From positions 204,139 to 268,138 of the forward strand of contig CAWFQW010000006.1 of NCBI GenBank assembly GCA_963818065.1: DNA of 64,000 nucleotides. Direction: 5' to 3'. The notes under the pieces were generated by a model. The model saw nothing but the letters and a program-made list of their open reading frames with translations. It was not told the origin of the DNA and searched no databases. Shown here piece after piece: positions 15,326 through 64,000 of this stretch. Source of the stretch: Bryobacterales bacterium. GTDB taxonomy: Bacteria; Acidobacteriota; Terriglobia; Bryobacterales; Bryobacteraceae. Position 1 is the first letter of the stretch. The number at the start of each line of letters is the position of its first letter. The position numbers and the translations under genes are program-made.

Positions 15326-16672
15326 TTACGACAATTCCGATAGTTCCCTGAACTGTCCGTTACTATCGCCCAACTTGTCGACAGGCACGCCCAGTTTATT
15401 CAGCAAAGTCAGTTCCAGGTTGGCGAGCGGCGTGTGCTCCGGATAGACCAGGTGACGGCCGCCCTTCAGCGTCCCGCCGCCTCCACCCACCAGAAACGTC
15501 GGCAGCGGGCCGTGCGTGTGCCGATCGCTGTTACTGATGCCCGAGCCAAAAAGAAGGATCACGTGATCCAGCAGCGAGCCGTCGCCATCCGGGGTGTTGC
15601 GCAGCTTCTCGAGATATTCAGTAAAAAGAGCGATGTGATAGCGCTGAATCTTCGCGCATTTTGCCATCTTTTCCGGGTTGCCCTGGTGGTGTGTGATTGG
15701 ATGATGCCCCTCAGGCACGCCGATCTGGGGATATGGCCTGGCCGTCTGCTCGCGGCCGTACATAAATGTGATCACCCGGGTCAGGTCGGATTGATACGCC
15801 AGCAGTTGCAAGTCATACAACAACCGGACCTGGTCCTCGAACTTTTCCGGGATACCGGCGGGCTGAGGCACGTCGGGCAATTCTTTGGAGCTCTGTTCTT
15901 CAGCCTTCTGAATGCGCCGCTCCACGTCTCTGAGGGACGCGAGATAGTCGTTCATCTTGCTTTTGTCGGCTGCCCCGAGCTGGCGCTGCAGTTGATTCAC
16001 GCGATCGCTCACGGAATCGAGAAGGCTTTTGTCCTGGTTGAGGCGTGCCGCGCGAACGCGAGGGTCGGTGCTGTCGCTCGAACCGAACATCCGCTCAAAA
16101 AGCACCCGCGGATTATTTTCCGCCATCAGCGGCAAGGTTGGCGTCAGCCAGGAGAGCGTGCTGCTGTAGGCGCAGCTATAGCCTAAATCGCACGAACCCA
16201 GCAGGCTATTTTCATCCGCGGTCATTTGCAGCGAGGAAAGCTGAGTCTCGCGCTCAAATGCCTTGGCGGCGATCTGATCCATGGACACAGAATTCTCGAC
16301 ATTGCTGTCCGACTTCTTCACATGCACGCCCGTGAGGTAGGAGCCGCACGCGCGGGAGTGGTCGCCGCCGCCGTCACCGTTCGCCTCCGCCGTATCGCAG
16401 AACAGGCCCGTGATAACCGTCAGTTTATCCTTGAAGGGTTCGAGTCCTTTTAATGTAGGCGAGAGCTCAAAATCGGAACCGACGCCCGTCGGCAGCCATT
16501 GATCGTAGATGACACCGTTGGGATGGTAGACGACGCCGAATCGGCGTACAGGTTTCGTGGAAGCGGCCGGCGCGAACGCTGGAATCATCGAGTCGAGCAG
16601 AGGCAGCGCGACAATCGTACCCGCTGCTCGAAGGACAGTGCGGCGCGAGATGGCTTTCTTGGTTACGAACAT
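15326..16672 (-). CDS. DUF1552 domain-containing protein
   Basis: 448 aa. Tat-like N-terminus SRRTVLRAAGTIVALPLLDSM. The sequence is typical of DUF1552, and it is partnered with the upstream DUF1592-family gene. Confidence 0.9.
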   Translation of the reverse strand: MFVTKKAISRRTVLRAAGTIVALPLLDSMIPAFAPAASTKPVRRFGVVYHPNGVIYDQWLPTGVGSDFELSPTLKGLEPFKDKLTVITGLFCDTAEANGDGGGDHSRACGSYLTGVHVKKSDSNVENSVSMDQIAAKAFERETQLSSLQMTADENSLLGSCDLGYSCAYSSTLSWLTPTLPLMAENNPRVLFERMFGSSDSTDPRVRAARLNQDKSLLDSVSDRVNQLQRQLGAADKSKMNDYLASLRDVERRIQKAEEQSSKELPDVPQPAGIPEKFEDQVRLLYDLQLLAYQSDLTRVITFMYGREQTARPYPQIGVPEGHHPITHHQGNPEKMAKCAKIQRYHIALFTEYLEKLRNTPDGDGSLLDHVILLFGSGISNSDRHTHGPLPTFLVGGGGGTLKGGRHLVYPEHTPLANLELTLLNKLGVPVDKLGDSNGQFRELSELS

Positions 16673-16685
16673 CGTCCGATTTTCC

Positions 16686-25710: not shown

Positions 25711-27373
25711 ATGGCTGGCGTCGCAGTGAAGTTCATCCCGCGAGAATTGTTGGTTCACACGCCAGATGGCGCCATTCGGCCGCTGCTGCTGGAGCGTGAT
25801 CGCTATACGCTCGGCCGAAGCAGCGCGAATGAGCTTTGTTATCCGGAAGATGCGGGACTTTCCCGCCAGCACCTGGCTTTGGAAAGGAACGGCGACACCT
25901 GGTCGGTCCGCGACTTAGGCAGCAAGAACGGCACCTTCGTCAATGGGGTTCGAATTAATGGCCCCTTCGAGTTGGGCAAGAACGATCGCGTCACTGCCGG
26001 CCACATCGCCCTCGATTTTGGCGAGAATTCGCTGCCGCCGCCTGCCGACGACAAGACCGTCGTCTTCATCGAAGGCTTGACGCCCACTACTTCGGTTTCC
26101 ACCACGGTCGCCACCAGCCTGAAAGGGGTCCTCGGTCAGGAAAAGGAAATCGAAGGCGGTCCGCAGATGCGCGCGCTCATCCGCGCCGGCCGCGAGCTGG
26201 CGGGCAATATGCCGCTCACCGAGCTGTTCAAGCTCATCATGAATCTGTCGGTGGAGGCCGTGGGCGCGACGCGCGGCGTGCTGATGACGCTCGAAGGCAA
26301 CGAACTGGTGGTTCGCTCGGCCTTAGGCGATGGATTCCGGATCAGCAATGCGGTGCGCGATCGCGTGATCAACGAGAAAACGTCGCTGCTGGTGCGCGAC
26401 GCGCGTCTGGATGAAGCGTTCGCGGACAGAATGAGCATCGTCCAGCAGCAGATTCGCAGCATGCTCGCCGTCCCGCTCCAAACCGACGACCGCGTCATCG
26501 GGCTCATCTATCTGGACTCGCCGCACTTTATCAAAGAGTTCACGAAGGACGACTTGAGTTTGCTCACCGTGATGGCCAACGTAGCGGCCATCCGCATCGA
26601 ACACACGCGTTTGGCCGAGGTGGAGCAAGCCGAGCGGATCCACGCCAAACAACTGGAGCAGGCCGCCGAGATCCAGCGTGGCTTGTTGCCGGTGAAAGCT
26701 CCCAATGTGCCTGGAGTGGATTTGGCCGGATACAACGCCGCGTGCCACACGGTGGGCGGCGATTACTACGATTTCCTGGTCTACCCCGATGGCCGTGTAG
26801 GAGTGCTGGTCGGCGATGTGGCAGGGAAGGGAATGCCGGCCGCGTTGTTGATGTCCAGCCTTCAGGCCCGCGTGCAGGTTTTGTTCGACGACCCCACGAA
26901 TTTGGCCGCATTGGTTACCCGGCTGAACCGGATCATTACTTCCAACTGTCCGTCCAACCGTTTCATCACGTTCTTCATCGGCATCCTCGACCCCACGACC
27001 GGCGAGCTGACTTATGTGAATGCCGGTCATAATCCGCCGCTGGTGGCTCACGCCGACGGAACCGTGGAAAAATTGGATGGCACCGGCCTGATTCTGGGTA
27101 TTTTGTCAGTCGCCCAGTACACGCAGCAAACCTGTACCTTGGCGCCAGGCGACGCCCTGCTTCTCTTCAGCGATGGCGTGAGCGAACCGGTCCGGCCGGA
27201 CTCCGACGAAGAATTTGGCGAAGATCGGCTGGCCCAGAACTTTGGCGAAATTGCGGGATGAGGATGCGCAGACGATCATCGACACCATCAATCAGCAAGT
27301 ACGCGAGTTCACCTGCGGCATGCCGCTGCCGGACGACATCACGTTGGTGGTCGCAAAGCGGACGGCGATATAG
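25711..27373 (+). pseudogene. FHA-GAF-PP2C (SpoIIE-type) phosphatase, frameshift near 27233
   Basis: ORF 25711..27261 holds FHA (YTLGRSS...LSRQHLAL...GSKNGTFVNG), GAF and PP2C (GGDYYDF...GDVAGKGMPAAL). The conserved C-terminus ...LAKLRDEDAQTIIDTINQQVREF...PLPDDITLVVAKRTAI* continues in the next frame to TAG at 27371-27373. Confidence 0.85.
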
Positions 27374-35745: not shown

Positions 35746-36807
35746 ATGCCGCCGCGCGTCAACGCGCCATTGACGCCGCCCTCAGCCAGATGGACAAGCA
35801 GTTCGGAAAAGGCTCCGTGCTTCGCCTCGGCTCGCGCAGTGTTCTGCCCGTGGCCGTGATATCCAGCGGTTCCATTTCGGTGGATGCCGCGTTGGGCGTG
35901 GGTGGATTCCCGCGCGGCCGGGTGATCGAGATCTTTGGGCCCGAGTCGTCCGGCAAAACCACCATGGCGCTTGCAGGTGATCGCGCAGGCGCAGAAAGCC
36001 GGCGGAACAGCGGCGTTTATCGATGCCGAGCATGCGCTGGACCCCGGCTACGCCAGGAATCTTGGAGTGGACGTGGACAACCTGATCGTCTCGCAGCCCG
36101 ACTACGGCGAGCAGGCGCTCGAAATCACCGGCGCGCTGATCGGCTCCGGCGGCATCGACATCGCGGTGGTGGATTCCGTCGCCGCCCTGGTGCCGAAAGC
36201 CGAGCTGGATGGTGAGATGGGCGATAGTCACATGGGTCTGCACGCCCGGCTGATGTCGCAGGCGCTGCGGAAACTGACGGGCACGGTGGCGCGCACCAAT
36301 ACGCTGCTGGTCTTTATCAATCAGGTTCGCGAGAAAATTGGCGTGATGTTCGGCAATCCGGAAACCACCACCGGAGGACGCGCGCTGAAGTTCTATTCCT
36401 CGGTCCGGGTGGAAGTGCGCCGGATGGCTGCCATCAAGGACGGCGAGAAAATCGTCGGCAACCGCACCAAGGTCAAGATCGTGAAGAACAAGGTGGCCGC
36501 GCCGTTCCGCGAAGCGGAAGTGGACATCCTGTACGGCCAAGGAATCTCGCGCGAGGGCGACCTGCTGGATCTGGGAGTGATTCAGGAACTTGTGGAAAAA
36601 AGCGGTTCGTGGTTTAGCTACGCGGGCCAGCGCATCGGCCAAGGCCGCGATAACGCCAGAACGTTCCTCGCCGAGAACCCGGCGCTGGCCGATCGCCTGG
36701 ACGCCGAATTGCGCGCGCGGCTGAGGCTTCCGAACGCCGCCGCGCCCGGACCGCTAACCACCGCGAGCGATTCGCTGGACTTGGCGCAAACCGCCCGGAC
36801 CGCGTAA
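35746..36807 (+). pseudogene. recA: recombinase RecA, at least 2 frameshifts
   Basis: ATG at 35746 is one nt out of frame with ...[28 protein letters not shown]...[12 protein letters not shown] (frame of ORF 35790..36215). The rest, [24 protein letters not shown]...[19 protein letters not shown]..., lies in ORF 35935..36807. The second shift is near 35965 (gcgctTGcaggtg). Confidence 0.9.
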
Positions 36808-44503: not shown

Positions 44504-47500
44504 GTGTCAGCGGCGCTTGCGTCGCTTCTCTGCGCGCTGCTGCTCGGACAGCAATCGAGCCAATCACGCCTCGGCGAATCGCAAGAAGAGGCTGACCGCA
44601 ACAGCGTCGGCTGCGTCGCATGCCACGGCCAGACCGATTCCGCGTCGATGCACACCACGGGGACTGTTCGCTTGGGCTGTGTCGATTGCCACGGCGGCCA
44701 CGCCGGGGTCACGCCGCCCACTGGTGCCCAGAAAGGCTCGGCTGGCTATGACGAGGCCAAAAAAAAAGCGCATCCCAAACCCAGCGTCCCTGAGCTGTGG
44801 CGCAGTTCCGCCAATCCGGTTCGTCCCTTCACCGAATGGCTCAAGGAAACCAAGGAGTACATCCAATTCGTCAATCCGGGCGATCTGCGCGTGGCCGAAC
44901 AAACCTGCGGCTCCGGCGGCTGTCACGCCAAGGAAGTGCTCGCGGTCCGCACCAGCATGATGACCACCGGCGCCATGCTCTGGGAAGCGGCTCTCTACAA
45001 CAACGGCGGCTTTCCCTACAAGGACGCCCGCTTCGGCGAGAGCTATTCGCCGGACGGAGTGGCGCAACGCGTCAACACTTATCCGCCGCCGTCGCAGGAA
45101 CTAACTCGCACCAAAGGCGTGCTCCCGCACCTGGATCCGCTGGCGCGCTGGGAAGTTTCGCAGCCCGGCAATATTCTGCGCGTGTTCGAGCGGGGCGGGG
45201 GAGAGCGCTCCGAAGTCGGCATTCCCAACACTGAGGAAGATCCCGGGCGTCCCGACGTGAAGCTGAGCGAGCGCGGCCTCGGGACCGAGCTGCGGACCGA
45301 TCCGGTTTTTCTCGGGCTCCAAAAGACGCGCCTGCTCGATCCCATTCTCTCGATGCCCGGTACCAACGATCATCCCGGCGACTATCGCAACAGCGGCTGC
45401 ACGGCTTGCCACGTCATCTACGCCAACGATCGTTCGCCCATTCACTCCGGGCCCGTATGCCCAGTACGGCAATCAGGCGCACAGCGCCGAGATCGATCCC
45501 ACCATTCCGCACAACGAGTCCGGCCATCCCATCAAGCACGAGTTCACGCGCTCCATCCCCACCAGCCAGTGCATCGTGTGCCACATCCATCCCGGCACCA
45601 ACATGGTGGCGTCGTATCTCGGCTACATCTGGTGGGACAACGAAACCGACGCCGAGCACATGTATCCGAAGGAGCAGCACAATCCGTCGGATGAAGAGCG
45701 ATTCCAAGCGTGGCTCGCGAATCCGGAGAGCGCCGCCGCGCGCGGGCTCTGGAAGGATCTTTCGTTTCTCGAGAAAACCGGCAGCCCCGAGTTCAATCAG
45801 CAGCTCAAGCACACGCAGTTCGCCGATTTCCATGGCCACGGCTGGGTGTTTCGCGCCGTGTACAAGCGCGATCGCAAGGGCAACCTGCTGGATCCCGAGA
45901 GCCACGTGGTGCCTTCGGACGATAAGGACAAGTTTCAAAAATCAGTCCAGCTCCGCGACATCCATCTCGAGAAGGGCATGCACTGCACCGATTGCCATTT
46001 CGCGCAGGACAACCATGGCGACGGCAATCTCTACGGTGAGACGCGCAACGCGGTCGAGATCGATTGCGTGGATTGCCACGGCGCCATCTCGCACAAAGCG
46101 ACGCTGCGGACTTCAGCCGCGGCCGCGCCCGCCGGCGGCACCGACATCTCGTTGCTCCGCACTCCCTGGGGCCAGCGCCGCTTCTATTGGCAAGACGGAA
46201 AACTCTATCAGCGCTCCATGGTCGACAAGGACCGCGCGCCATGGGAAGTGGTGCAGGTGGTGGATACCATCACGCCCGGCAATCCGCACTACAACGAGAA
46301 GTCGCGGCTGGCCAAGACGATTCTGAAAGACGGGAACACCTGGGGCAGCGTGCCCGGCGACGAATCCACGCTGGCGCATTCCAACGAGCGCATGACCTGC
46401 TACGCCTGCCACACTTCCTGGACCACCAGTTGCTTCGGCTGCCATCTGCCGATGAGCGCAAACCGCAAGCTGCCCATGCTGCACAACGAAGGGCTGACCA
46501 CGCGCAACTACACCGCCTACAATTTCGAAGTGCTGCGCGACGACATTTACATGCTCGGCATTGACGGCACCGTCACCAAGCATCGCATCGCGCCCACGCG
46601 TTCCACCTGCGCCGTCGTCGTCAGTTCGCAGAACGCCAATCGCGACTGGATCTATTACCAGCAGCAGACGATTTCCGCGGAAGGCTTCAGCGGCTTCGGC
46701 GTTCAGCCCTTACTATCCGCACACCGTCCGCGCCACCGAAACCAAAACGTGTACCGATTGTCACGTCTCGCGCGAGGGCGACAACAACGCGTGGATGGCG
46801 CAGCTCCTGATGCAAGGGACAAATCTCGTCAATTTCATGGGACGTTACGTCTACGTGGCCGAAGGTTCCAAGGGCTTCGACGCCGTCGCCGTGGCCGAGC
46901 ATGACGATCCGCCCGCAGTGTTCGGAAGCGATTTGCAGAAGCTTGTCTACTCGAAGGACTACCAGGAAGTGGAGGAGCATCACGGCGAAATTCACGAAGC
47001 CGATCATCACGGGGGCAACGTCCTGGATCTCCAGTTGCGCGGCGAATATCTTTACGCGGCGTTGGGCAAGGACGGTTTCCGAGTCTACGATGTCGCGAAC
47101 ATCGATAACAAGGATTTCTCGGAGAAGATGACCACGGCGCCGGTATCGCCCTTGGGACAGCGGTTCTATGTGAAGACTAAGAACGCTACTGCGGTCGGTT
47201 CGCCATCGACGCTGGCCGTCGATCCCTTGCGCACCCGCATTCCAGCGAACGAAGAGCAGGCCATCGCGTTGATGTACGGATTCCTCTACGTAACCGACGC
47301 CGAAGAGGGGCTGGTGGTGATCGGCGATCCTGACCTTAAAAGCAAAGCTCCCGGCGTGCTCACGCTGCTGGACGGCAATCCTGCGAACAATTTCTTAAAA
47401 CGCGCCACAACATTTAACCCCAATAACGTCTTAAAGGGCGCTCGCCGGATCACTATCGCCGGAACCTATGCCTACATCCTTTGTGATCGCGGCTTGGTAG

Positions 47501-48189
47501 TGGTCAACATCGCCAATCCGCTCGCGCCCAAAGTGGAGTCTGAAATCGGGGCGCCCGATTTGGTCGATGCGGAAGGCATCGCCATCCAGTTCCGCTACGC
47601 TTTTGTCGTGGATCTCCAGGGACTGAAGGTTCTGGATGTCACCTCGCTCGCGCACCCGCGCGTGGTACAGGGCGCGAGTGTTCCGCTTGACGACGCCCGC
47701 AACATCTACATCGCTCGAACGTACGCCTACGTCGCCGGCGGCAAGCAGGGCCTGGTGATCATGGATGTGGAGCGCCCCGAGCACCCGCGCATCGAACAGG
47801 TATTCACCGCGGAGGGCGCCCTGAACGACACGCGCGATGTGAAGCTCGGCATGACCGCCGCCAGCGCATTCGCTTATATCGCCGACGGCCAGAACGGCAT
47901 GCGCATCGTGCAGTTGTTCGCGCCCAACGACACGCCCAATTACCTCGGCTTCAGCCCGAAGCCCACGCCCAGGCTGATCGCCACCTATCGCACCAAAGGC
48001 CCGGCGCTCGCGGTCTCCAAAGGCATCGATCGCGACCGCGCCGTCGATGAAGACGGCAATCAGCTCTCGGTCTTCAATCGCCGCGGCTCACGTCCCTTCA
48101 ATCGCGAGGAAGCACAACGCCTGTATCTAAAGAACGGGCAGGTGTTCACTGTGACGAACGATCCGCCGGGCCCGGCGAGCAACAAGTAG
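44504..48189 (+). pseudogene. giant multiheme c-type cytochrome fused to an LVIVD-repeat beta-propeller (about 1200 aa), 2 frameshifts
   Basis: ORFs 44504..45694, 45576..46904 and 46561..48189 are colinear. Heme motifs are CVACH, CVDCH, CGSGGCH (CX4CH), CTACH, CIVCH, CTDCH, CVDCH, CYACH, CFGCH and CTDCH. The C-terminal roughly 450 aa carries repeats of the G[LF]xV[IVL]DV..P..P type ([51 protein letters not shown]). The shifts are near 45454 and 46700. A possible upstream ATG at 44473 lies in another frame. Confidence 0.8.
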
Positions 48190-50315: not shown

Positions 50316-52469
50316 CTAGTTTCTCCGCGGCTGGTTGGCAAGAGGCGTGCCCACCCAGCGGAAAAATTCGTTGGGCTCCACGCGATGCGCCGCGTCATGC
50401 GGGCACGCATACACGCAACTGGGCTCGGCGAGATCGGTGCATAGATCGCACGAGGTCGCCTTCTGTTTGACCACGGCCATCTGGCGTCCCGCGTTCGCGG
50501 GATCGTTTTCCATCACCGTGAACGGATGCATGTTGATATTTCCGTACGGGCAATTCTTCGCGCACAGGCCGCATCCGATGCACCAATTCTCGATGATCAC
50601 TTCGAGCGAATTGCGCCGGCGAATCGACCCGACCGGACAACCGATCATGCACAACGGATCCCTGCAATGGCGGCAGGACGTGGCCACCAGATATTTGTCG
50701 AAACGCTGGCCTTCGCGGATCAGCCGGGTTACTCCATCGTGAGCATCGGCACACGCGCGCACGCAGGCATCGCAACGCGTACAGCGCTCCAGATCCATCA
50801 CCAGCAGGCTCTGCGCTTCCATCAATCCTTGGGCCAGGAACGAATCCAGTGGCATGCTGGTCGCGGTAGCCAGGCGCTGCCGGTTCTGCTCTTGCCGCTC
50901 GCGCACCAGGGTCTCCAGGCTCCGGCGCACTTCAGGGAATCGCTCCACCATGCGGTGAAATTCCTCGCCGTGAATGCGCACCAGCTCCACGTGATCGAGC
51001 GCTGTGCAGGTGGCCGTTCGGATTCCGCCACCCAGCAATCCGATTTCGCCGAAGTATCCGCCGCGTCCCAGGTACGCCAGCACCAACTCGCCGCCAGGAT
51101 GCCCTTCCGACACTTTCACGAACCCGAGGCGAATCACGTAGAAGCTGTCCGCGATGTCGCCCTGCCGGCAAATCACGTCGCCCTTGGTGTAGCGCACCAG
51201 CTCCACCTTGTCGCGCAAGGTGTCGATGAACTCCGGATCCAGCGATGCAAACATAGGAACGCTGCGTAGATGATCGTCGAGTGCGCGGCGGCGATAGTTG
51301 GCGTCGAGCTGGGCTTTTAGTGTTTTGTTGCGCTGGATAATATCGAGCACGTTGCGCAGCATTTCAAACATCACGCAGTCGGTGGCCGCGCGTACCGTTG
51401 CCGAGCGCGGATACAGACTCATGCATGTCATTTCGCCGAATAGATCGCCGGGGCCGAGCGTGGCCACCGGATGGTCATAGGGCAAATCCACGGGCGCGTC
51501 AATGGGAATGGTTTCGCGCCGGCCCTCTTCGGAGCGGCTTTCCTGCTGGCGTCCAAATAGGCGGCTGGTCATCTTGCCGAGGAAACCAGTACCGTGACGT
51601 TCGGTATTCACGTGCGCCATCGGCGTCGAGAGAAACACTTCGGCTTGGCCTTCCAGGATGTAAAACGCCGTGGAACCGTACTCGCCCTCGCGGCAAACGA
51701 TCTCACCCTTGCGGAAGTGCCGGCGAACGACGGCATTCTTATTCAATTCGAGAAACGTTCCCGAGACCTTCTGGAAGTAAGAGAGCCGCTGCAGTTCGTC
51801 GATGTCCACCGGCTCGCCGGGCAGAACCGTTTTCACCACACTCTTGTTGGTGAGGGCGCCGGTGGGGCACGACACCATGCACTCGCCGCAGGACACGCAG
51901 GAGGAATTGCCCATCGGCAGATTGGTGTCGAACGCGATGCCCGCGAGGAAGCCCTTACCGCGTCGCCCCAATACATCGTTATGGCGGATTTCGTCGCAAC
52001 CGCGAATGCAGCGATCGCACAAAATGCAGGCCTCGTGATCAACCGCGATCACCAGCGACGAATTGTCCTGGCCGCGTGCGGAGATTTTGCGCGGGAAACG
52101 CGGTTCGCCGATGCCTTCGAGGCGCGCCAGAGTTTCCAATTCGCAGTCGTTCGATTGCCGCTGGCGAGCGCAGGGGCTGGGATGATCCGCCATCAGCATT
52201 TCCACGAGCGTCCGGCGTGCACGTAACACTCGCTCGGAATTGGTGCGCACCACCATATTGTTCTCGGCGGGCCGCACGCACGAGGCTGCCAGTACCCGAG
52301 CTTTCTCTAGGTCAACCACGCACACGCGGCACACGCCGACGGGCGTTTCGTTCTGCTGATGGCACAGCGTGGGGATTGCGATGCCGTGGATGCGCGCCGC
52401 GTCGAATACGCTGGTTCCTTCGGGCACCGAAATCGCTTGGCCGTCGATGCTGAGTTGAACGTCGCTCAT
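50316..52469 (-). CDS. Fe-S protein: NuoG-N-terminal-like [2Fe-2S]/[4Fe-4S] domains + two cNMP-binding domains + four-cluster ferredoxin domain
   Basis: ATG at 52469 forms an ATGA overlap with the upstream stop; ORF 50316..52493 begins at a TTG. N-terminus: C-x11-C-x2-C-x13-C, CILCDRCIRGC and CVSCGECMVSCP. Middle: two CAP-type cNMP domains (FGEMTCMSLYPRSATVRA; YFGEIGLLGGGIRTATCTA). C-terminus: CTRCDACVRAC, CRHCRDPLCMIGCP, CIGCGLCAKNCP and CDLC-x7-CVYACP. Confidence 0.85.
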   Translation of the reverse strand: MSDVQLSIDGQAISVPEGTSVFDAARIHGIAIPTLCHQQNETPVGVCRVCVVDLEKARVLAASCVRPAENNMVVRTNSERVLRARRTLVEMLMADHPSPCARQRQSNDCELETLARLEGIGEPRFPRKISARGQDNSSLVIAVDHEACILCDRCIRGCDEIRHNDVLGRRGKGFLAGIAFDTNLPMGNSSCVSCGECMVSCPTGALTNKSVVKTVLPGEPVDIDELQRLSYFQKVSGTFLELNKNAVVRRHFRKGEIVCREGEYGSTAFYILEGQAEVFLSTPMAHVNTERHGTGFLGKMTSRLFGRQQESRSEEGRRETIPIDAPVDLPYDHPVATLGPGDLFGEMTCMSLYPRSATVRAATDCVMFEMLRNVLDIIQRNKTLKAQLDANYRRRALDDHLRSVPMFASLDPEFIDTLRDKVELVRYTKGDVICRQGDIADSFYVIRLGFVKVSEGHPGGELVLAYLGRGGYFGEIGLLGGGIRTATCTALDHVELVRIHGEEFHRMVERFPEVRRSLETLVRERQEQNRQRLATATSMPLDSFLAQGLMEAQSLLVMDLERCTRCDACVRACADAHDGVTRLIREGQRFDKYLVATSCRHCRDPLCMIGCPVGSIRRRNSLEVIIENWCIGCGLCAKNCPYGNINMHPFTVMENDPANAGRQMAVVKQKATSCDLCTDLAEPSCVYACPHDAAHRVEPNEFFRWVGTPLANQPRRN

Positions 52470-54196: not shown

Positions 54197-55501
54197 ATGA
54201 AACCGGCACCGGGCATCCAACTGCTTCTGGGCGCGCTCCTGGCGGTCCGCTGCCTGATGGCCGCCGATAGCGCGGAGTCTTCGAAATACACCGGACCAGG
54301 CTCCTGCAGTTCCCCCAGTTGCCACGGCGGCGTACAAGCGCGCGATCAGACCACAGTGCTGCAGAACGAGTACAGCACCTGGGTGGTGCGCGATAAACAC
54401 GCGCATGCATTTTCGAATCTCACCAATCCGGTTGGGACACGCATCGCCAAAATCATGGGACTGCCGAGTCCCGACACGGCGCCGCGCTGCCTGGCTTGCC
54501 ATGCGCTGGATGTTCCGGCCGATCAGCGCGCCCGCACCTTCGACCTCACCGACGGCGTGGGATGCGAGAACTGCCACGGCCCAGCGTCGGCATGGCTGGG
54601 GCCGCACACCACGCGCGGCTGGAAGTACGAAAAATCGCTCGAGTCGGGACTGTACGATACACGCGATCTGGTGAAGCGCTCCGAAAAATGCCTCAGCTGC
54701 CACCTTGGGACGCCGGAAAAGATGGTGGATCACGAACTGATCGCCGCGGGCCATCCCGATCTGTACTTCGAGCTTGATTCGTTCATGTCGGTGATGCCGC
54801 CGCATTGGAAGGAAGTGGACACCGACCCGTGGTTCGCGGTCCGCGCTATGGCTGTGGGGCAAGCCGTGCAGTTGCGTGAGCAGCTTAAGCGCGTGGCGCG
54901 CGAGTCGCAAGGCGGCATCTGGCCGGAATACGCGGAGCTGGATTGCTTCGCTTGTCACCACAACCTGACTGCCGCGAAAGACAGCTGGCGGCAGGAGCGA
55001 GGGTACACCGGCCGGCGTCCCGGCAATCCGCCGTTCAACCTGTCGCGCTACGTGGTGTTCAAGCACGTGATCCAGGACTCCGATCCCGGGGCCGTTCGCG
55101 ATCTCGAGGCTGGGATCAAGCAGGTCTACGCGGGCGTCACCGCGCTGAATTCGGATCGCCGTCAAGTGGCCATGGAAGCAACCGGCGCGTCGGAGCTGGC
55201 GGGGAGATTGGCGCAACGTTTGAACGGGATGAAATTCGATCCGCCTCAAACGTTGCGTTTGTTGAAGAGCATCGCCGCCGATGGCGACGGAATCGCCGAG
55301 CAAGGTGAGCGCGCGGCCGAGCAAGCCACCATGGCGCTGGATTCGCTGTTCATCGCGTACTCGAAGAACGACAAGCTCGGCAACGAGGCGCAGATTCGAG
55401 CCGGCATTAACGGACTGTTCCAGCAACTGGACGATCCGTCGTTGTTCAACGGCTTCAAGTTCGCCGCGGCAATGAAGAATCTGAGTTCGTTGCTGCCATA
55501 G
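54197..55501 (+). CDS. periplasmic multiheme c-type cytochrome (cytochrome c554-family-like) with helical C-terminal domain
   Basis: 434 aa with a signal peptide. Heme motifs are CSSPSCH (CX4CH), CLACH, CENCH, CLSCH and CFACH. Confidence 0.85.
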   Translation: MKPAPGIQLLLGALLAVRCLMAADSAESSKYTGPGSCSSPSCHGGVQARDQTTVLQNEYSTWVVRDKHAHAFSNLTNPVGTRIAKIMGLPSPDTAPRCLACHALDVPADQRARTFDLTDGVGCENCHGPASAWLGPHTTRGWKYEKSLESGLYDTRDLVKRSEKCLSCHLGTPEKMVDHELIAAGHPDLYFELDSFMSVMPPHWKEVDTDPWFAVRAMAVGQAVQLREQLKRVARESQGGIWPEYAELDCFACHHNLTAAKDSWRQERGYTGRRPGNPPFNLSRYVVFKHVIQDSDPGAVRDLEAGIKQVYAGVTALNSDRRQVAMEATGASELAGRLAQRLNGMKFDPPQTLRLLKSIAADGDGIAEQGERAAEQATMALDSLFIAYSKNDKLGNEAQIRAGINGLFQQLDDPSLFNGFKFAAAMKNLSSLLP

Positions 55502-55509
55502 GCCGAGCC

Positions 55510-57048
55510 ATGCCGTTAGCGCGAACCATCTCCATGTTGACGTTAGCGGCCTGGATCTGTCTTGCGCAGGCACCGCCGCGTCCGCCGATTCATCACCGTC
55601 CGCTTCCGGACCCACCGTCGCTGGTCGATCCCGTGCTGTTGACGTCCGCTGATGTCGCGAGAGTGGTGGAAGTTGCCGCATCATCCGTGAATTCCGATGC
55701 GATGGTGATCGCGGTCACGGATCGCCAGGGCAATATTCTCTCGATTTATCAAAAACCGAACGCGCCGGCCACGGCGCTCGCCAATTTTGGAGTGCAGGCG
55801 GACACGCAAGAAGTAGCCGTAGCGCTCGCGCGGACTGCGGGGTTCTTCAGCAACGATCAAGCGCCGCTTTCCTCGCGGACCGTGCGCTACATCAGCGGCA
55901 TTCACTTTCCGCCAGGAATCAATTTTACGGCCAACGCCCCGCTGTACGGCATCGAGAACACCAATCGCGGCTGCCCCTTCAACGCCGCTTACATCCTGGG
56001 CCAGGAGTTTCCGGCAGCGCGTTCCATCGATGGGTCGACCACCGGCCTCGGCATTCTTACCGGAAAAGCGAATCTCTACGACAGCGATCCCATCGCAGTG
56101 AATCCAGGCGGAGTTCCACTGTACAAACAAGGCGTGCTGGTTGGTGGAGTCGGCGTGGCAGGCGTCGCGGCCGATGTCGCGGAGTTCGCGGCGTTCTCGG
56201 GAGCGGTTGGTGCGGGTTTCGGTGCGAATCCAGCGCCGCCAGGCGTGGTCATCATTAATGGCATCGCGGTGCCCTTCGTCAATCAGACGACTCGGCCCGC
56301 TGGATATGGCGCGGGGTCAGCGGACGGGATGTATGTGTTGGGTCCGCTCGCGAGTCTGAAAGCTCCACCCGAGGGTAATCTGGTTGCGCCGCGCGCGGGT
56401 CCCATTGGCGGCCTGACCGCGGACGAAGTGGAGAGCATCGTTAACGCGGCCACAGCCGAAGCCAATCTCACACGCGCCGTGATCCGATTGCCGATTGGCG
56501 CGCGGACGCGCATGACGATCGCAGTCGCCGATCTGGACGGCACGATCATCGCGCTGTATCGTATGGCCGATGGCACCGTGTTCAGTATCGACGTCGCGGT
56601 GGCGAAAGCGCGCAACGTGATTTTCTTTAGCGGACCTAATCGTACGGCCAGTGATTTGCCGGGTGTGCCGATGGGCACCTCGGTTACTAATCGGACCATA
56701 GGCTTCGGCGGCCAGCCGATTTATCCGCCGGGAATCGACGGCTCGGGGCCAGGTCCTTTTTTTCAGCTCTATCAATTCGACACGCTGAATCCGTGCACGC
56801 AAGGATCGCAGTCGGCGAATCCGAATCAAAACGGCATCGTCTTTTTCCCCGGCTCGCTTCCGCTGTATAAGAACGGAGTGCTGGTGGGTGGCCTGGGCGT
56901 GAGCGGCGATGGCGTGGATCAAGACGATTTCGTGACTTCCGCGGGTGCGGCCGGATTCGATGCGCCCACCAACATCCAAGCCGATCAAATCATCGACCAA
57001 GGCGTGCGGCTGCCGTACCTCAAGTTTCCGCGCAACCCTACGGATTGA
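55510..57048 (+). CDS. secreted protein with two tandem GlcG/HbpS-like (DUF336) domains
   Basis: 512 aa with a signal peptide. Two copies of the DUF336 signature are present (GGVPLYKQGVLVGGVGVAGV... and GSLPLYKNGVLVGGLGVSGDGVDQDD), each preceded by a T..DV..VV......A......MVIAV.D..G-type segment. Confidence 0.8.
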   Translation: MPLARTISMLTLAAWICLAQAPPRPPIHHRPLPDPPSLVDPVLLTSADVARVVEVAASSVNSDAMVIAVTDRQGNILSIYQKPNAPATALANFGVQADTQEVAVALARTAGFFSNDQAPLSSRTVRYISGIHFPPGINFTANAPLYGIENTNRGCPFNAAYILGQEFPAARSIDGSTTGLGILTGKANLYDSDPIAVNPGGVPLYKQGVLVGGVGVAGVAADVAEFAAFSGAVGAGFGANPAPPGVVIINGIAVPFVNQTTRPAGYGAGSADGMYVLGPLASLKAPPEGNLVAPRAGPIGGLTADEVESIVNAATAEANLTRAVIRLPIGARTRMTIAVADLDGTIIALYRMADGTVFSIDVAVAKARNVIFFSGPNRTASDLPGVPMGTSVTNRTIGFGGQPIYPPGIDGSGPGPFFQLYQFDTLNPCTQGSQSANPNQNGIVFFPGSLPLYKNGVLVGGLGVSGDGVDQDDFVTSAGAAGFDAPTNIQADQIIDQGVRLPYLKFPRNPTD

Positions 57049-58653
57049 GCGCGTTCTCCGCGGCGCGCTTTTTTGCCAACTGGCGGAAAATTTCGCCGAA
57101 CGCCGGCATGCTGGAGCGCAGCTTGTCGAAATCCCGCTTGGGAATGATCAGCACATTCATCGCGGTGCGGGCTTGAATCGTGGCGTTGCGGCTCTGATCG
57201 GCAAGCAGCGCCATTTCGCCGAAATGGTCGCCGACTATCAGCGTCGCGAGAAGCCTGCGCTCGCCGTTTTCTTCGCGCCACACTTCGCACTCGCCTTCCT
57301 CGATCACATAGACGCTATCGCCCAGATCGCCTTGCCGGAAAACCACGTCGCCCGGCTTGGAAGTGCTGGTTCTGAATTGCGGACGTGGGATCGAGCTTGG
57401 TCTCGGCGAGATCGGGCGGGAACAGCAGGCGCAGCGCTCCAATCGGTCGCGATGCGGGTCTTGCGATTCAGCCCCGGCATCTTCATCAGATAAATGCAGC
57501 GCCATAGCATCCAAGCCAAAAAGCCCGAGAGTTTCACGCCCAGGATCTGGGCAACGGCCGCTCCATGGCCGAGAGAACTGAGCGTACCCAAACCTTCGAA
57601 CATGAACTCGGCGCGCGCGCCTCCACGGATAGCGGCGGCGATGTTGGTTGCGGCCGTGGCGGCTTCTCGAATGGCGTGCTGCGCGGTGGGCGGAGCTTCC
57701 TTGCCTGAAACAGTTTTCACCACCGCACAATCGCCGAGGGCCCACACCTGACCCTCGTGGTCCTTCAGTTCGAGACCGGTGTTGGTCAGCAGTTTGCCTT
57801 TTTCTTTCGCGCAATTCAGCTTCTGGATCACCGGGGTCAGCGTGGAAGGCACGGTACACACGATGGTCTTGCATGCGATCTCAGCGCCCGATTTCAAGAT
57901 GGCTTTTTCCGACGTCGCAGCTACCAGCCGGTCTTCCAGAATGATCTCGACTCCACGTTTGCGCAGCGTCTTTTGAGCGAACAGCGCCAGCGGCTCGGCC
58001 ATTTCCTGAAGAATGCGGTCGCGCGAATGAACCAGCACCGCGCGATGCGGCTGATCGCGGAGGCGCAGATAATTTTTCTTGACTGCCCGCACGAAGTCGT
58101 TCAGCTCGGCGATCACCTCTACGCCTGAAAATCCTCCGCCGCCCACCACAAAGGTGAGTAGCTTACGCCGCAGCTCGGGATCTTCCTCGACGTCCGCTTC
58201 CTCGAGCGTTCGAATCACGTGATTGCGCAACACCATCGCGTCGGCCAGCGTCTTGAAGGGCATCGCGTTTTCGAGCATGCCCGGCATTCCATAGAAGTTC
58301 GTAACATTGCCGAGCGCGATCACCAGATAGTCGTAATGAATCTGGAGCTGGCGCGGGCGAAACCCAGGGCTGACCGTGACCACGTGGTTCTGAAGATCGA
58401 TGTCTTCAATCTCGCGAGTCACCAGGTTTGTGCGCGGGCAGAGGCGGCGGATGGGCGATACGACGTTAGCCAAGCCGAGGGAGCCGGAGATTACTTCCGA
58501 GAGCATGGGCTGATAGACCCAATAGTTCTCGCGATTGACCAGCGTGATGGCGGCTTCTTCAGGGCGCAGGAGCTTTTCGAGATAGCGGGCCGTATAGACG
58601 CCGGCGAATCCTCCGCCCAGGATGACGATTTGTTTCGCGGCCCGGGCGTCCAT
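57038..58653 (-). pseudogene. type II NADH dehydrogenase (NDH-2) fused to a C-terminal cNMP-binding domain, 2 frameshifts
   Basis: ORF 57304..58653 gives the NDH-2 body (ILGGGFAG, VVGGGGFSGVE, WALGDCA). A third frame reads LLFPPDLAETKLDPTSAIQNQHF. The tail of ORF 57038..57874 gives KPGDVVFRQGDLGDSVYVIEEGECEV...GDHFGEMALLADQSRNATIQA. The shifts are near 57432 and 57360. The 3' end overlaps the convergent GlcG-like gene by 11 nt. Confidence 0.8.
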
Positions 58654-59761: not shown

Positions 59762-60175
59762 ATGCTGAAGCTCACCAAAAAAGCGGACTACGGGCTCATC
59801 GCTTTGAAGCACTTGGCGGTGAATGCGCCGGCCAGTTCCAGCGCCAAGGAGATCGCCGAGACCTACGGAATTCCGGCGGCGCTGCTGTCGAAGATTCTGC
59901 AGAAGCTGGTGAAGAACGGCTTCCTGCGCTCCGAGCACGGAACCAACGGCGGCTACAAGCTGGCTCGCGATGCGCGCGAAATCACGGCGTACGAAGTGAT
60001 CCGCACCATCGACGGGCCGATTTTTCTGACCGCGTGCTTCACCGAGCACGGCTATTGCGTGCACACCGACAAGTGCACCGTGCGCGATCCGTTGCAGAAG
60101 GTTCACGAAGGAATCCTGCGGCTTTTGGCGAGCATCAGCATCTCAGATATGTCCGCGGATTCGTCGAAGAACTGA
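59762..60175 (+). CDS. iscR: Rrf2 family transcriptional regulator IscR
   Basis: [19 protein letters not shown]... is a winged-helix N-terminus. The Cys triad C-x6-C-x5-C ([14 protein letters not shown]) fits an Fe-S cluster. It is the first gene of the isc cluster. Confidence 0.85.
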
Positions 60176-60272
60176 ATCCAAACCGGAAGACGAGGTGGCC
60201 AAATCGGCGCAGCGTTTGTACGATCTTTCGATCCCGCCGGCGCAGACACATGATGTGAATGAGGGACCGAGA

Positions 60273-61487
60273 ATGAAACTGCCGATCTACATGGACTATC
60301 ACGCGACCACGCCGATGGATCCGCGCGTGTTTGAAGCGATGAAGCCGTATTTCCTGGAGACCTTCGGGAACGCCGCCAGCCGCAATCACAGCTTTGGCTG
60401 GGAAGCGGAGGAAGCGGTGGAGAAGTCGCGCAAGCAGATCGCGAGCTTGATCGGCGCCACCGCCAAGGAGATCGTGTTCACCAGCGGCGCCACCGAATCG
60501 AACAATCTGGCGCTGAAGGGCGTGGCCGAGATGTACGCCGAGAAGGGCAACCACATCATCACGGCGGCCACCGAGCACAAGGCCATCCTCGACACCTGCA
60601 AGCGGCTGGAAAAGCACGGCGTGCGCGTGACTTATCTGCCGGTGCAGACCAACGGTCTGGTGGATCTGGAGCAGTTGCAGGCGGCGATCACGGACAAAAC
60701 GATCCTGATCAGCATCATGTACGCCAACAACGAAATCGGCGTGATGCAGCCGATCGCGGAGATCGGCAAGATCGCGAAATCGAAGGGCGTGCTGCTGCAC
60801 ACCGACGCGACGCAGGCGGTCGGCAAAGTGCCGGTGAACGTGATCAAGGACAACATCGACCTGATGTCGCTGAGCGGCCACAAAATGTACGGGCCCAAGG
60901 GCGTCGGCGCGCTGTATGTTCGCCGCAAGAGCCCGCGCGTTCAGATCACGGCGCAGATGGACGGCGGCGGCCACGAGCGCGGCATGCGGTCGGGCACGTT
61001 GAATGTTCCGGGAATCGTCGGGTTGGGCGAAGCCTGCGCGCTGTGCCAGGCCGAGATGCCGGAAGAGTCCAAGCGCATGGCGTTTCTGCGCGACAAGCTG
61101 CGCGACAAGCTGCAATCGGAGCTGGATGAGACTTACATCAATGGCACCATGGAGCACCGGCTGCCGAACAATTTGAACATCAGCTTCGCTTACGTCGAAG
61201 GCGAGTCGCTGCTGATGGGCATCAACGATATCGCGGTGTCGAGCGGCTCGGCCTGCACCTCGGCCACGCTGGAGCCGAGCTACGTTTTGAAGGCGCTGGG
61301 CGCCGGCGACGATCTGGCGCACTCGTCCATTCGTTTCGGCCTGGGGCGGTTCAATACCGAAGAGGAAGTGGACTACGTCGCGGCCAAGGTCATCGACGTG
61401 GTGAAGAAGCTCCGCGAACTTTCGCCGCTCTATGAGATGGCGAAAGAGGGAATCGATTTATCGAAGGTCCAGTGGGCCGCGCATTAA
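60273..61487 (+). CDS. iscS: cysteine desulfurase IscS
   Basis: ATG at 60273 after GAGGGA, within ORF 60195..61487. It carries [22 protein letters not shown] (PLP Lys) and SSGSACTS (catalytic Cys). Confidence 0.95.
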
Positions 61488-61544
61488 GAGAAACAGAGCC
61501 GCGACCGTGAGGGAGCGGAAGGTAAGATAGAAGAGGACACCAAC

Positions 61545-61967
61545 ATGGCTTATTCCGACAAAGTAATCGACCACTACAACAACCCCCGCAACGTCGGCTC
61601 GATGGACAAGAGCGATCCGAACGTGGGCACCGGCATGGTAGGCGCGCCGGAATGCGGCGACGTGATGAAGCTGCAGGTGAAGGTGAATCCCGAGACCGGC
61701 ATCATCGAAGACGCCAAGTTCAAGACGTTCGGATGCGGCAGCGCGATCGCGAGTTCGTCGCTGGCCACCGAATGGCTGCGCGGCAAGACCGTGGACGAAG
61801 CGCTGGCAATCAAGAACACCGACATCGTCAACGAGCTGAGCCTGCCGCCGGTGAAGATTCACTGCTCGGTGCTGGCCGAGGACGCGATCAAGGCCGCCAT
61901 CGGCGACTACAAGCAAAAGGCCGCGGGCAAGACTGAAGCCGTTGGGTCGAGTGTCGCATCTAAGTAA
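61545..61967 (+). CDS. iscU: Fe-S cluster assembly scaffold IscU
   Basis: YSDKVIDHYNNPRNVG...GAPECGDVMKLQ...FKTFGCGSAIASSS...LPPVKIHCSVLAEDA. Confidence 0.95.
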   Translation: MAYSDKVIDHYNNPRNVGSMDKSDPNVGTGMVGAPECGDVMKLQVKVNPETGIIEDAKFKTFGCGSAIASSSLATEWLRGKTVDEALAIKNTDIVNELSLPPVKIHCSVLAEDAIKAAIGDYKQKAAGKTEAVGSSVASK

Positions 61968-62291
61968 TTGATGGTTACCGTAACACCCAAGGCCGTTGCG
62001 AAGATCCGCGAGCAGTTCGCCAAGCATGGCGTCCAGGGAGGGCTGCGCCTGGGCGTGCTGGGCGGCGGATGCTCCGGCCTTAGCTATCTTTTCAAGTTCG
62101 ACGTGAAGCCGCGGCCGACCGACACGGTCTACGAATTCGAGGACGTGAAGGTTTTCGTGGACCCCAAGAGCATGGTCTATCTGAACGGCATGACGCTGGA
62201 TTGGAAGGACTCGCTCATTCACTCCGGCTTCGAGTTCGACAATCCGAACGCGAAGAAAAGCTGCGGCTGCGGAACGTCTTTCTCGGCGTGA
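61968..62291 (+). CDS. iscA: iron-sulfur cluster insertion protein (IscA/HesB family)
   Basis: 107 aa with GGGCSGLSY and a C-terminal SCGCGTSF. Confidence 0.9.
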   Translation: MMVTVTPKAVAKIREQFAKHGVQGGLRLGVLGGGCSGLSYLFKFDVKPRPTDTVYEFEDVKVFVDPKSMVYLNGMTLDWKDSLIHSGFEFDNPNAKKSCGCGTSFSA

Positions 62292-62855
62292 CCGGACTAC
62301 TACGCAGCTGCTCGGCATTCCGCGCAGTCTCAATCTTTCGCTCGACGACTCTGCAGACAGCGCTATTACGAGCTGAGCCGCGCAGCTGCATCCCGATCGA
62401 TTCATGCAAAAGCCGGAAGCCGAGCGCCAGCGGGCGCTGGATATGTCGTCGGCGCTGAACGACGCCTACCGGACGCTGAAGGATCCGATCAAGCGCGCGC
62501 AATATTTGCTGGGTCTGGAGGGCTTCGACATCGGCGAGCAGCGCTCGAAGGACGTGCCGCCGGAGTTGCTGGAAGAGGTCTTCGAGCTGAACATGGCGCT
62601 GGAGGAGATGCGCGGCGGCGACGATTCCGCGCGTCCGCAATTGGAGCAGGCCGAGAAGAATTTCACGGGCATGCTGGCCGAGTCCGACCAGGAGCTGCGA
62701 GCGCTCTTTGTGACAGTACGATGCCGCGCAATCGCGCGACGTGCTGGCCCAAATCCGCAATGTTTTGAACCGCCGCAAGTACATCTCAGAACCTGGTCTC
62801 CGAAGTCCAGAAGACGCTCGAAGCCAGCCACCAGCAACCAACCACCAGCAGCTAA
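62288..62855 (+). pseudogene. hscB: Fe-S co-chaperone HscB, at least 4 frame changes
   Basis: A GTG at 62288 overlaps the iscA stop. Pieced across all three frames it reads ...YYAQLLGIPRSLNLSLDD...RYYELSR..LHPDRFMQKPEAERQRALDMSSALNDAYRTLKDPIKRAQYLLGLEG (J-domain HPD) ...LRALF...RDVLAQIRNVLNRRKYIS...LVSEVQKTLEASHQQPTTSS*. ORFs 62201..62458, 62404..63057 and 62741..63136 each carry a part. Confidence 0.75.
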
Positions 62856-62859
62856 CGCC

Positions 62860-64000
<1,141 letters not shown>

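Follow-up and report, generated by a model that had tools for sequence, protein, structure and literature searches.

In the mycobacterial acetyltransferase Pat, a bacterial cyclic nucleotide-binding (CNB) domain allosterically controls a fused enzyme whose output is acetylation, and in FNR a CNB-like fold is combined with a [4Fe-4S] cluster that is itself the sensor, the cyclic nucleotide monophosphate (cNMP) site having been lost and the output being DNA binding. Iron-sulfur (Fe-S) subunits of the HydN, DmsB and PsrB type usually relay electrons between a catalytic subunit and a membrane anchor, and NOX5 and DUOX combine an EF-hand Ca2+ sensor with an NADPH/FAD dehydrogenase and a dihaem transmembrane domain. 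The closest description of a system bringing such parts together is that of the 'ptdABCDEFG' cluster of marine bacteria, whose function is called 'completely unknown' and which encodes a pentahaem protein (PtdA), a porin (PtdB), an FAD/NAD(P) oxidoreductase (PtdC), a tetrahaem protein (PtdD) and, in this order, a CNB/Fe-S protein (PtdE), a transmembrane cytochrome-b-like protein (PtdF) and a decahaem cytochrome (PtdG), with published accessions that include MBT5131324 and REK03315 (bioRxiv 10.1101/2023.11.21.568154). Here we describe a variant of this kind of module, which has been noticed in that one preprint, with a different input, encoded in a 64,000-nucleotide stretch of DNA from a Bryobacterales bacterium of the Acidobacteriota (assembly GCA_963818065.1, contig CAWFQW010000006.1, positions 204,139 to 268,138), the whole of which is referred to as the window. 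The gene under study encodes a polyferredoxin of 717 amino acids (aa) with two CNB domains, and we regard it as an even proposition that this protein is the central Fe-S subunit of a four-protein electron-export module that would lead from NADH to a decahaem cytochrome under the control of a cNMP.

Four co-directional genes, which overlap or lie 3-9 bases apart, form the operon, and the polyferredoxin gene comes second. Its start ATG shares the sequence ATGA with the TGA stop of the gene before it, and a GAGG motif occurs shortly 5' of this start. Domains were searched with Pfam and NCBIfam profiles and their curated cutoffs, motifs were located by regular expressions and manual indexing, and folds were predicted with AlphaFold2 (AF2) and then compared with the PDB using Foldseek. 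These analyses confirm the three-part architecture that an earlier reading of the window, made from the letters alone (the sequence-only reading), had described. NCBIfam profiles of HoxU, NuoG and the N-terminus of [FeFe] hydrogenases align with residues 4-216, those of the CNB domains of CRP, Pat and encapsulin-2B with the middle of the protein, and those of HydN, DmsB and AegA with residues 555-701, none of these matches (HoxU, NuoG, HydN, DmsB and others) reaching an NCBIfam equivalog cutoff, while Fer4-type Pfam matches lie at residues 141-207 and ~555-700. The AF2 model of the whole protein, built with 122 homologues as input, has a predicted local distance difference test score (pLDDT) of 79 and a predicted template modelling score (pTM) of 0.70.

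Conservation was assessed in an alignment of the query with 148 of the best 150 representatives of 50%-identity clusters from an exhaustive HMMER search, and in a second alignment covering Acidobacteriota and Planctomycetota at 39-99% identity. At the N-terminus, Fer2_4 matches residues 4-78 (E 6.6e-17) over the motif C36-x10-C47-x2-C50-x13-C64; the [2Fe-2S] motif reported by the sequence-only reading thus stands, with its first spacing corrected from x11 to x10, and of the 77-80 representatives in which the region occurs, 72-76 keep these Cys. Next comes H96-x3-C100-x2-Q103-x5-C109, which has the exact spacing of the His-ligated cluster site of NuoG with Gln as the third ligand, and where the match to NADH-G_4Fe-4S_3 (residues 85-124) scores 23.0 bits, under the Pfam cutoff of 27. 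This site had been called degenerate, and rightly so: no aligned representative has Cys at position 103, and position 109 is mostly Asn, residues by which the N5-type cluster is predicted to be lost in all homologues examined. In complex I, N5 is the exit point of NuoG; with this cluster lost, electrons would leave the N-terminal module through the ferredoxin-like domain, which ends at about residue 205, some 20 residues before the first CNB domain. The two [4Fe-4S] motifs of this ferredoxin-like domain, CILCDRCIRGC (148-158) and CVSCGECMVSC (191-201), have Cys that are invariant in the alignment of Acidobacteriota and Planctomycetota.

The sequence-only reading had called the module NuoG/FdhA-like, and it is indeed of the NuoG/HoxU kind. 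AF2 residues 1-211 superpose on the N-terminal modules of HydA, FdhA and NuoG with a root-mean-square deviation (rmsd) of 1.8 Å, the structural matches being 7t30_A and 7q4w_A (1.8 Å over ~210 residues). On the other hand, the NCBIfam matches to HoxU (170.1 bits, cutoff 333) and NuoG (118.5 bits, cutoff 470) cover the N-terminal 211 residues only and stay below the equivalog thresholds. Compared with the NADH diaphorases of complex I, Hox hydrogenase and NAD-dependent formate dehydrogenase, in which HoxU/NuoG/FdhA/HydA-type modules accompany NuoE-NuoF, the window protein shares the fold, the [2Fe-2S] site, the two ferredoxin-type [4Fe-4S] sites and a NuoEF partner, whereas it has lost the His-ligated cluster (Q103), is followed by CNB domains, and is encoded in an operon that has no hydrogenase, molybdopterin or NuoCDHI partner.

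The middle of the polyferredoxin holds two canonical CNB domains (CNB-A and CNB-B), as had been claimed. In a profile search set beforehand as a check, cNMP_binding (PF00027) matched with E 9e-39 and 131.8 bits against a cutoff of 27.5, in three stretches because CNB-A carries an insertion of ~45 residues. Their presence is therefore secure, whereas their limits, given as about residues 240-500 in the sequence-only reading, are wider, the region spanning residues ~223-538. In the AF2 model each domain consists of a beta-barrel and alphaB/alphaC helices, arranged in tandem as in PKA-R and PKG; the top Foldseek match is the CNB-A/B pair of PKG I-beta (4z07, E 1.5e-19), 3shr and 5j3u following at ~1e-19, and by HMMER the tandem is colinear with CNB-A/B of PKG through the phosphate-binding cassette (PBC) of CNB-A, the inter-domain helices and all of CNB-B. 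The NCBIfam profile of Pat, ActPatMycb56, matches residues 406-525. The likeness to PKA-R and PKG thus extends to colinearity and canonical PBCs; the differences are an Fe-S domain as output instead of a kinase, the insertion in CNB-A, and the orientation of the domains, which deviates in the model with an rmsd of 14-20 Å. Unlike FNR, the polyferredoxin has intact PBCs, and its clusters would form an electron-transfer chain.

The phosphate-binding residues are G345-E346...R355-S356-A357 in CNB-A and G474-E475...R484-T485-A486 in CNB-B; we take R-S-A-T to be the CAP form and R-T-A-T the form of PKG, CNG and HCN, both compatible with cAMP or cGMP. Among the aligned sequences, the CNB-A residues are kept in 138/138 (Gly), 135/138 (Glu), 134/141 (Arg), 108/140 (Ser/Thr) and 124/140 (Ala) cases, and the CNB-B residues in 140/140, 126/139, 117/137, 98/138 and 111/137, respectively. 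In the second alignment G345 and G474 are invariant, and conservation reaches at least 90% for R355, S356, A357, T358, R484, A486 and T487. As the Arg and Ser/Thr that contact the ligand are kept across the deep family, the argument that would have dismissed the domains as degenerate fails. The same residues bear on an explanation in which the CNB domains sense another ligand, for instance a nucleoside as in trypanosome PKA-R, or act as a structural spacer. Structures of the cAMP-independent trypanosome PKA-R appear among the Foldseek matches, ligands other than cNMPs are known for CNB folds, the window open reading frames (ORFs) scanned include no cyclase, and some family members have divergent PBCs; nevertheless, Gly-Glu and the phosphate-contacting Arg are ~85-100% conserved in both domains among the divergent representatives, a pattern that a cyclic-phosphate site would produce and a spacer would not, and we consider this explanation unlikely.

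Behind the alphaC helix of CNB-B, a flexible hinge leads in the AF2 model to the first Cys motif of the C-terminal domain. This domain carries four [4Fe-4S] motifs (residues 563-573, 599-611, 630-640 and 674-689), and all 16 of its Cys are at least 97% conserved in the alignment, which bears out the four-cluster ferredoxin of the sequence-only reading. Its four CxxCxxCxxxC(P)-type motifs and its best NCBIfam matches over residues 555-701 liken it to HydN/DmsB/PsrB, although the scores lie far under the equivalog cutoffs (HydN, E 2.4e-16, 59.7 bits against 260; DmsB, E 3.4e-13, 49.9 bits against 214). It further differs in being cytoplasmic and fused to CNB domains, and the operon encodes neither a molybdoenzyme or hydrogenase catalytic subunit nor an NrfD/DmsC-type anchor.

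The conservation of the operon was sampled at 80 loci from Acidobacteriota genomes with 71-96% identity to the polyferredoxin. The preceding gene, for a NuoE-NuoF fusion (NuoEF), is found beside it in 77 of these loci in the same relative position, and its product, which matches nuoF_fam with E 6.7e-134, would serve as the NADH/FMN input module with one [2Fe-2S] and one [4Fe-4S] site. By Pfam, NADH_4Fe-4S (residues 460-544 of 562) is the last domain of this protein and Fer4 is absent, and a NuoF-like subunit without an extra ferredoxin domain favours a simple diaphorase over a bifurcating enzyme; an electron-bifurcating enzyme of the Bfu/HydABC type was rejected on this absence of extra clusters. 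The two genes that follow, for a 286-aa membrane protein and a decahaem cytochrome c, are each present in 79/80 loci, again in the same relative position. NADH-linked reduction of a partner cytochrome, as put forward by the sequence-only reading, is among the statements that would hold at the level of architecture.

The membrane protein has four His (H81, H95, H265 and H279) that are the same in 80/80 loci and also in orthologues with only 24-35% identity. Helices 3 and 5 would be parallel, each leading outwards across the membrane according to the positive-inside rule, so that H81/H265 and H95/H279 would be two bis-His sites about 14 residues (~21 Å) apart. Two bis-His sites so spaced are the classical arrangement of dihaem cytochromes b, and the protein is probably a dihaem b-type transmembrane electron carrier, possibly ferric-reductase-like or cytochrome b561-like. 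The profile matches are weak: DUF4405 at E 0.0086 in Pfam and, for an orthologue from Sphingobium, Ni_hydr_CYTB at E 1.4e-4, under its cutoff. A likeness to NOX5 and DUOX, drawn as an analogy only, would lie in the cytoplasmic oxidation of NAD(P)H, two bis-His haems on two helices and a second-messenger sensor, whereas the window system would differ in its FMN and Fe-S input, its CNB sensor, a multihaem acceptor instead of O2 and its division into separate polypeptides.

HMMER retrieved 1564 hits at E<1e-30 among the 50%-identity cluster representatives. The family occurs in at least 587 species genomes and is abundant in peat and soil Acidobacteriota; more than 100 clusters at 79-100% identity have the full-length architecture of 713-727 aa. 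This architecture is also common in Planctomycetota, among them the cultured Tundrisphaera sp. TA3, and there the copies bear no annotation beyond 'cyclic nucleotide-binding domain-containing protein'. At least two other genes of the window probably contain indel errors, and the multi-domain ORF might on this account be suspected of consisting of separate genes joined artificially by misassembly or a frameshift; the recurrence of the same full-length form in so many clusters and genomes, a cultured strain included, refutes such a fusion artefact and leaves its likelihood practically nil.

The N-termini vary in the 149 aligned sequences (148 representatives and the query), 55 having a HoxU-like module, 48 the CNB pair first and 29 another extension. 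At all five distant loci of the NuoEF type that were examined (L081, L082 and L084-L086) a NuoEF gene is in the cluster, and the membrane protein and the multihaem cytochrome recur in L082, L085 and L086 with partner identities of 26-43%; L085 and L086 also have a c554-like cytochrome, and L086 an HbpS-like protein. L082 has NuoEF and the HoxU-like module in one polypeptide (1158 aa), and a protein of 545 aa, made up of the two CNB domains and the four-cluster domain (CNB-CNB-Fer4x4), is encoded separately. The end of this last gene is overlapped by a gene for a 727-aa Ser/Thr protein kinase (L082:9635-11818 (+)), which hints at more signalling input in that lineage. In Sphingobium herbicidovorans MH, plasmid pMSHV encodes an 825-aa protein with a Pyr_redox flavoprotein domain before CNB-CNB-Fer4x4, and the operon continues with homologues of the membrane protein (E 4e-14) and of the cytochrome (E 9e-32). 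The Sphingobium homologue of the decahaem cytochrome (L083:10102-11901 (+)) carries an N-terminal, cytoplasmic FHA-like domain (Yop-YscD_cpl) before its membrane anchor; a 10-haem 'Forkhead-associated protein' described in 27 genomes of a Gallionellaceae pangenome (PMC10734462) may belong to the same family.

These comparisons indicate that the unit invariant across phyla consists of CNB-CNB-Fer4x4, the membrane protein and the multihaem cytochrome, and that the flavoprotein which oxidises NAD(P)H and feeds this unit is interchangeable. The placement of the CNB pair between two cluster modules, emphasised by the sequence-only reading, therefore holds for the window protein and not as a general rule, since L082, Sphingobium and the representatives that begin with the CNB pair depart from it; judged from these sequences, the pair is the N-terminal module of the CNB-CNB-Fer4x4 core and not primarily an insert between the halves of a wire. 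They also bear on an explanation in which NuoEF and the polyferredoxin form a soluble NADH-dependent reductase for a cytoplasmic acceptor, the membrane protein and cytochromes being mere neighbours. L081 and L084 would fit this, as they have NuoEF and the polyferredoxin without an adjacent membrane protein or multihaem cytochrome; yet both proteins follow the polyferredoxin in 79/80 acidobacterial loci, with gaps of 3-9 bases in the window, and the same two recur in the three distant loci and in Sphingobium despite differing input modules, which makes a soluble reductase very unlikely.

In the export module that we favour, electron flow would be independent of quinone: NuoE-NuoF would supply the NADH/FMN site and the polyferredoxin would extend the chain, electrons passing from NADH to FMN, the Fe-S clusters of NuoEF, the [2Fe-2S] and two [4Fe-4S] clusters of the HoxU-like module, the four C-terminal [4Fe-4S] clusters, two stacked b-haems across the membrane, and the membrane-anchored, periplasmic decahaem cytochrome, from which they would reach periplasmic or outer partners such as the c554-like and multihaem/beta-propeller proteins. 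For this, the 286-aa membrane protein would offer a docking site to the four-cluster domain on its cytoplasmic side; the docking, haem and onward-transfer steps are proposed on account of the conserved gene order and the invariant residues. Binding of cAMP or cGMP would shift the conformation of the CNB pair in the manner of PKA-R and PKG, and this shift, acting through the alphaC helix and the hinge, would reposition or unmask the four-cluster domain with respect to its donor, the changed distance or docking switching NADH-driven electron export on or off. Electrons that leave the cell from NADH move downhill in redox potential as well as in membrane potential; such export would conserve no energy, depolarise the membrane and drain reducing power, which would be a rationale for tight control, by analogy with the regulated eukaryotic NADPH oxidases.

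Gating of electron flow by a second messenger, as suggested by the sequence-only reading, is plausible as a hypothesis, and the interpretation given by that reading is supported in part. A stronger form, in which a gap in the Fe-S chain, within the protein or between subunits, would itself be opened or closed by cAMP or cGMP as a valve for NADH electrons on their way to multihaem cytochromes, and the CNB tandem would be a general plug-in of NAD(P)H electron-transfer enzymes in Acidobacteriota, Planctomycetota and Alphaproteobacteria, including fusions with NDH-2 and NO synthase, is tentative, and we give it less than even chances. In favour of cNMP-controlled export as set out above, other NAD(P)H-dependent electron-transfer enzymes of these genomes carry CNB domains (NDH-2-CNB and CNB-CNB-[2Fe-2S]-FNR-NO-synthase). 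Several observations weigh against it. The HoxU-like module is on another polypeptide in L082 and absent from 48/149 sequences, which would imply gating through docking and not a simple tether; the planctomycete loci L081 and L084 have no membrane protein and cytochrome beside the gene; PBCs are divergent in a few lineages (for example CNB-B of P0267); and no class III cyclase was found in Pfam scans of 37 window ORFs (~13 short ORFs being left out), in agreement with the sequence-only reading that no cyclase is visible. Furthermore, the case for haem b consists only of the four invariant His and the weak profile matches, the AF2 model of the membrane protein (45 close homologues) reaches a pLDDT of 66 and a pTM of 0.52, Foldseek gave no PDB match to this model at E<0.001, and the family profile of the membrane protein gave only noise against PDB sequences.

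On the other hand, the CNB pair may bind a cyclic nucleotide and yet act on how the complex assembles, chooses its partners, is recruited to the membrane or is stabilised, instead of on electron transfer within the protein. A core that works with interchangeable and sometimes separate input modules fits control of protein-protein docking, and the tandem is colinear with those of PKA-R and PKG, which bind and release a partner; in the window protein, however, both flanking modules are covalently attached through short linkers, so that full dissociation is impossible. This alternative, which largely overlaps the electron-gating explanation, appears to us rather unlikely.

With respect to Ptd, compared by description and not by sequence, the window has the PtdE-F-G gene order and a 10-haem cytochrome, whereas its input consists of NuoEF, located where PtdC would be, and the fused HoxU-like module, and no porin corresponding to PtdB was recognised. 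The C-terminal domain has four cluster motifs whereas the preprint counts two 4Fe-4S clusters, and the hosts of the window type are soil and peat Acidobacteriota as opposed to marine taxa. The Sphingobium operon, which is homologous to that of the window, has a Ptd-like layout and is absent from the listed Ptd loci, and when the members of 10 short-form cluster representatives were looked up no Ptd accession was among them. Literature searches found no characterised combination of NuoF and CNB, Fer4 and cNMP_binding, NDH-2 and CNB, or CNB, 4Fe-4S and an oxidoreductase, and no experimental work on any member of the polyferredoxin family.

The features of the polyferredoxin, its operon and the flanking genes are collected in Table 1. 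Of the genes around the operon, that of the c554-like cytochrome, whose five haem motifs might make it the counterpart of PtdA, was found in 65/80 of the acidobacterial loci, that of the HbpS-like secreted protein in 44/80, and that of the fusion of a multihaem cytochrome with an LVIVD beta-propeller in 32-38/80. The last is interrupted in the window by frameshifts near 45455-45600 and 46700-46710 and is a single protein of ~1240-1290 aa in relatives; its N-terminal part has at least 8 CXXCH motifs, it has no PDB relative by sequence, a homologue adjoins the Sphingobium operon (47-48% identity), and it may be a downstream redox partner or an enzyme. In one metagenome-assembled genome, MFD09286.bin.1.167, two whole copies of the operon lie on separate contigs (L013 and L024), with 88% and 84% identity to the window polyferredoxin, and thus represent paralogous modules within a single genome.

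Table 1. Features of the polyferredoxin, its operon and the flanking redox genes in the window.
Feature	Residues	Position in window	Strand	Remarks
Polyferredoxin gene, 717 aa		50316..52469	(-)	Layout: HoxU-like module, CNB-A, CNB-B, four-cluster domain
[2Fe-2S] domain	1-80	52230..52469	(-)	C36, C47, C50, C64
Remnant of His-ligated site (NuoG N5-type)	85-124	52098..52217	(-)	H96, C100, Q103, C109
Ferredoxin-like domain, two [4Fe-4S] motifs	141-210	51840..52049	(-)	Fer4_21, Fer4_Nqo3 matches
CNB-A	~223-395	51285..51803	(-)	Low-confidence insertion of ~45 residues (~290-334) in beta-barrel
CNB-A PBC	344-358	51396..51440	(-)	FGEMTCMSLYPRSAT
CNB-B	~397-538	50856..51281	(-)	Includes long alphaC helix 512-538
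CNB-B PBC	473-487	51009..51053	(-)	FGEIGLLGGGIRTAT
Hinge, flexible	539-552	50814..50855	(-)	pLDDT <50 at 539-548
HydN/DmsB-like domain, four [4Fe-4S] motifs	553-700	50370..50813	(-)	NCBIfam, Cys motifs
NuoE-NuoF fusion flavoprotein, 562 aa		52466..54154	(-)	Pfam 2Fe-2S_thioredx, Complex1_51K, SLBB, NADH_4Fe-4S
Membrane protein, 286 aa, five helices		49446..50306	(-)	Cytoplasmic helical insert of ~125 residues
Decahaem cytochrome c, 415 aa		48195..49442	(-)	Ten CXXCH, N-terminal membrane anchor
c554-like cytochrome, periplasmic		54197..55501	(+)	Divergent from operon; 4 CXXCH and 1 CX4CH (CSSPSCH)
Secreted protein, two HbpS/GlcG-like domains		55510..57048	(+)	Pfam; divergent from operon
Multihaem cytochrome-LVIVD beta-propeller fusion		44504..48189	(+)	Three overlapping ORFs, two frameshifts

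Five kb from the operon, the window also encodes a fusion of NDH-2 with a CNB domain (57038..58653 (-)), frameshifted at ~57388-57436. The same fusion is a single ORF of 544-572 aa in six related genomes, by which the window copy is frameshifted through a sequencing indel or is a pseudogene; it would represent a second NADH-oxidising enzyme with a cNMP sensor near the operon, and none of the 10 top-ranked literature matches mentions both NDH-2 and 'cyclic nucleotide-binding domain'. In two related Bryobacterales, a gene next to the operon (L019:12396-15614 (+) and L009:14484-17723 (+)) encodes a protein of 1072-1079 aa with two CNB domains, a BFD-like [2Fe-2S] domain, FAD and NAD-binding (FNR-like) domains and an NO synthase oxygenase domain (E ~1e-150), which would unite a bacterial NO synthase with a cNMP sensor and a reductase of its own.

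Elsewhere in the window, the match of a RecA ORF (35935..36807 (+)) starts at profile position 59 of 262, its N-terminus being seemingly missing or in another frame; this ORF and the two frameshifted genes point to the kind of indel errors that long-read assemblies typically contain. Positions 59762..64000 (+) hold a 137-aa ORF that by eye resembles an Rrf2/IscR-type regulator, followed by an IscS-like class-V aminotransferase and a truncated, HscA-like ORF of the Hsp70 family, which suggests an isc Fe-S assembly cluster a few kb from the Fe-S-demanding operon. The signalling proteins of the window include a GAF-GGDEF-EAL c-di-GMP enzyme (9408..11534 (+)), which was all that the cyclase scans brought up, and an FHA-GAF-SpoIIE phosphatase (25711..27261 (+)); GAF domains can bind cNMPs. 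A DUF1552 (HXXSHH) protein is paired with a PSCyt/PSD-domain cytochrome-like protein (DUF1592/1588/1585/1587/1595) at 15326..19112 (-), a pairing typical of Planctomycetes-style genes and present here in an acidobacterium.

To our knowledge, cNMP regulation in bacteria is known mainly for transcription, channels and a few enzymes, and in the literature we found no demonstration of a cyclic nucleotide directly controlling a respiratory or extracellular electron chain by binding to one of its Fe-S subunits. The presence of the family in the cultured Sphingobium herbicidovorans MH (pMSHV) and Tundrisphaera sp. TA3 makes the hypothesis directly testable. The reduction of iron and humic substances by Acidobacteriota of peat and soil may involve multihaem cytochromes; if the proposed gating is true, these bacteria would possess a post-translational switch for discarding reducing equivalents outside the cell, and the polyferredoxin would offer a natural design for ligand-gated electron wires.

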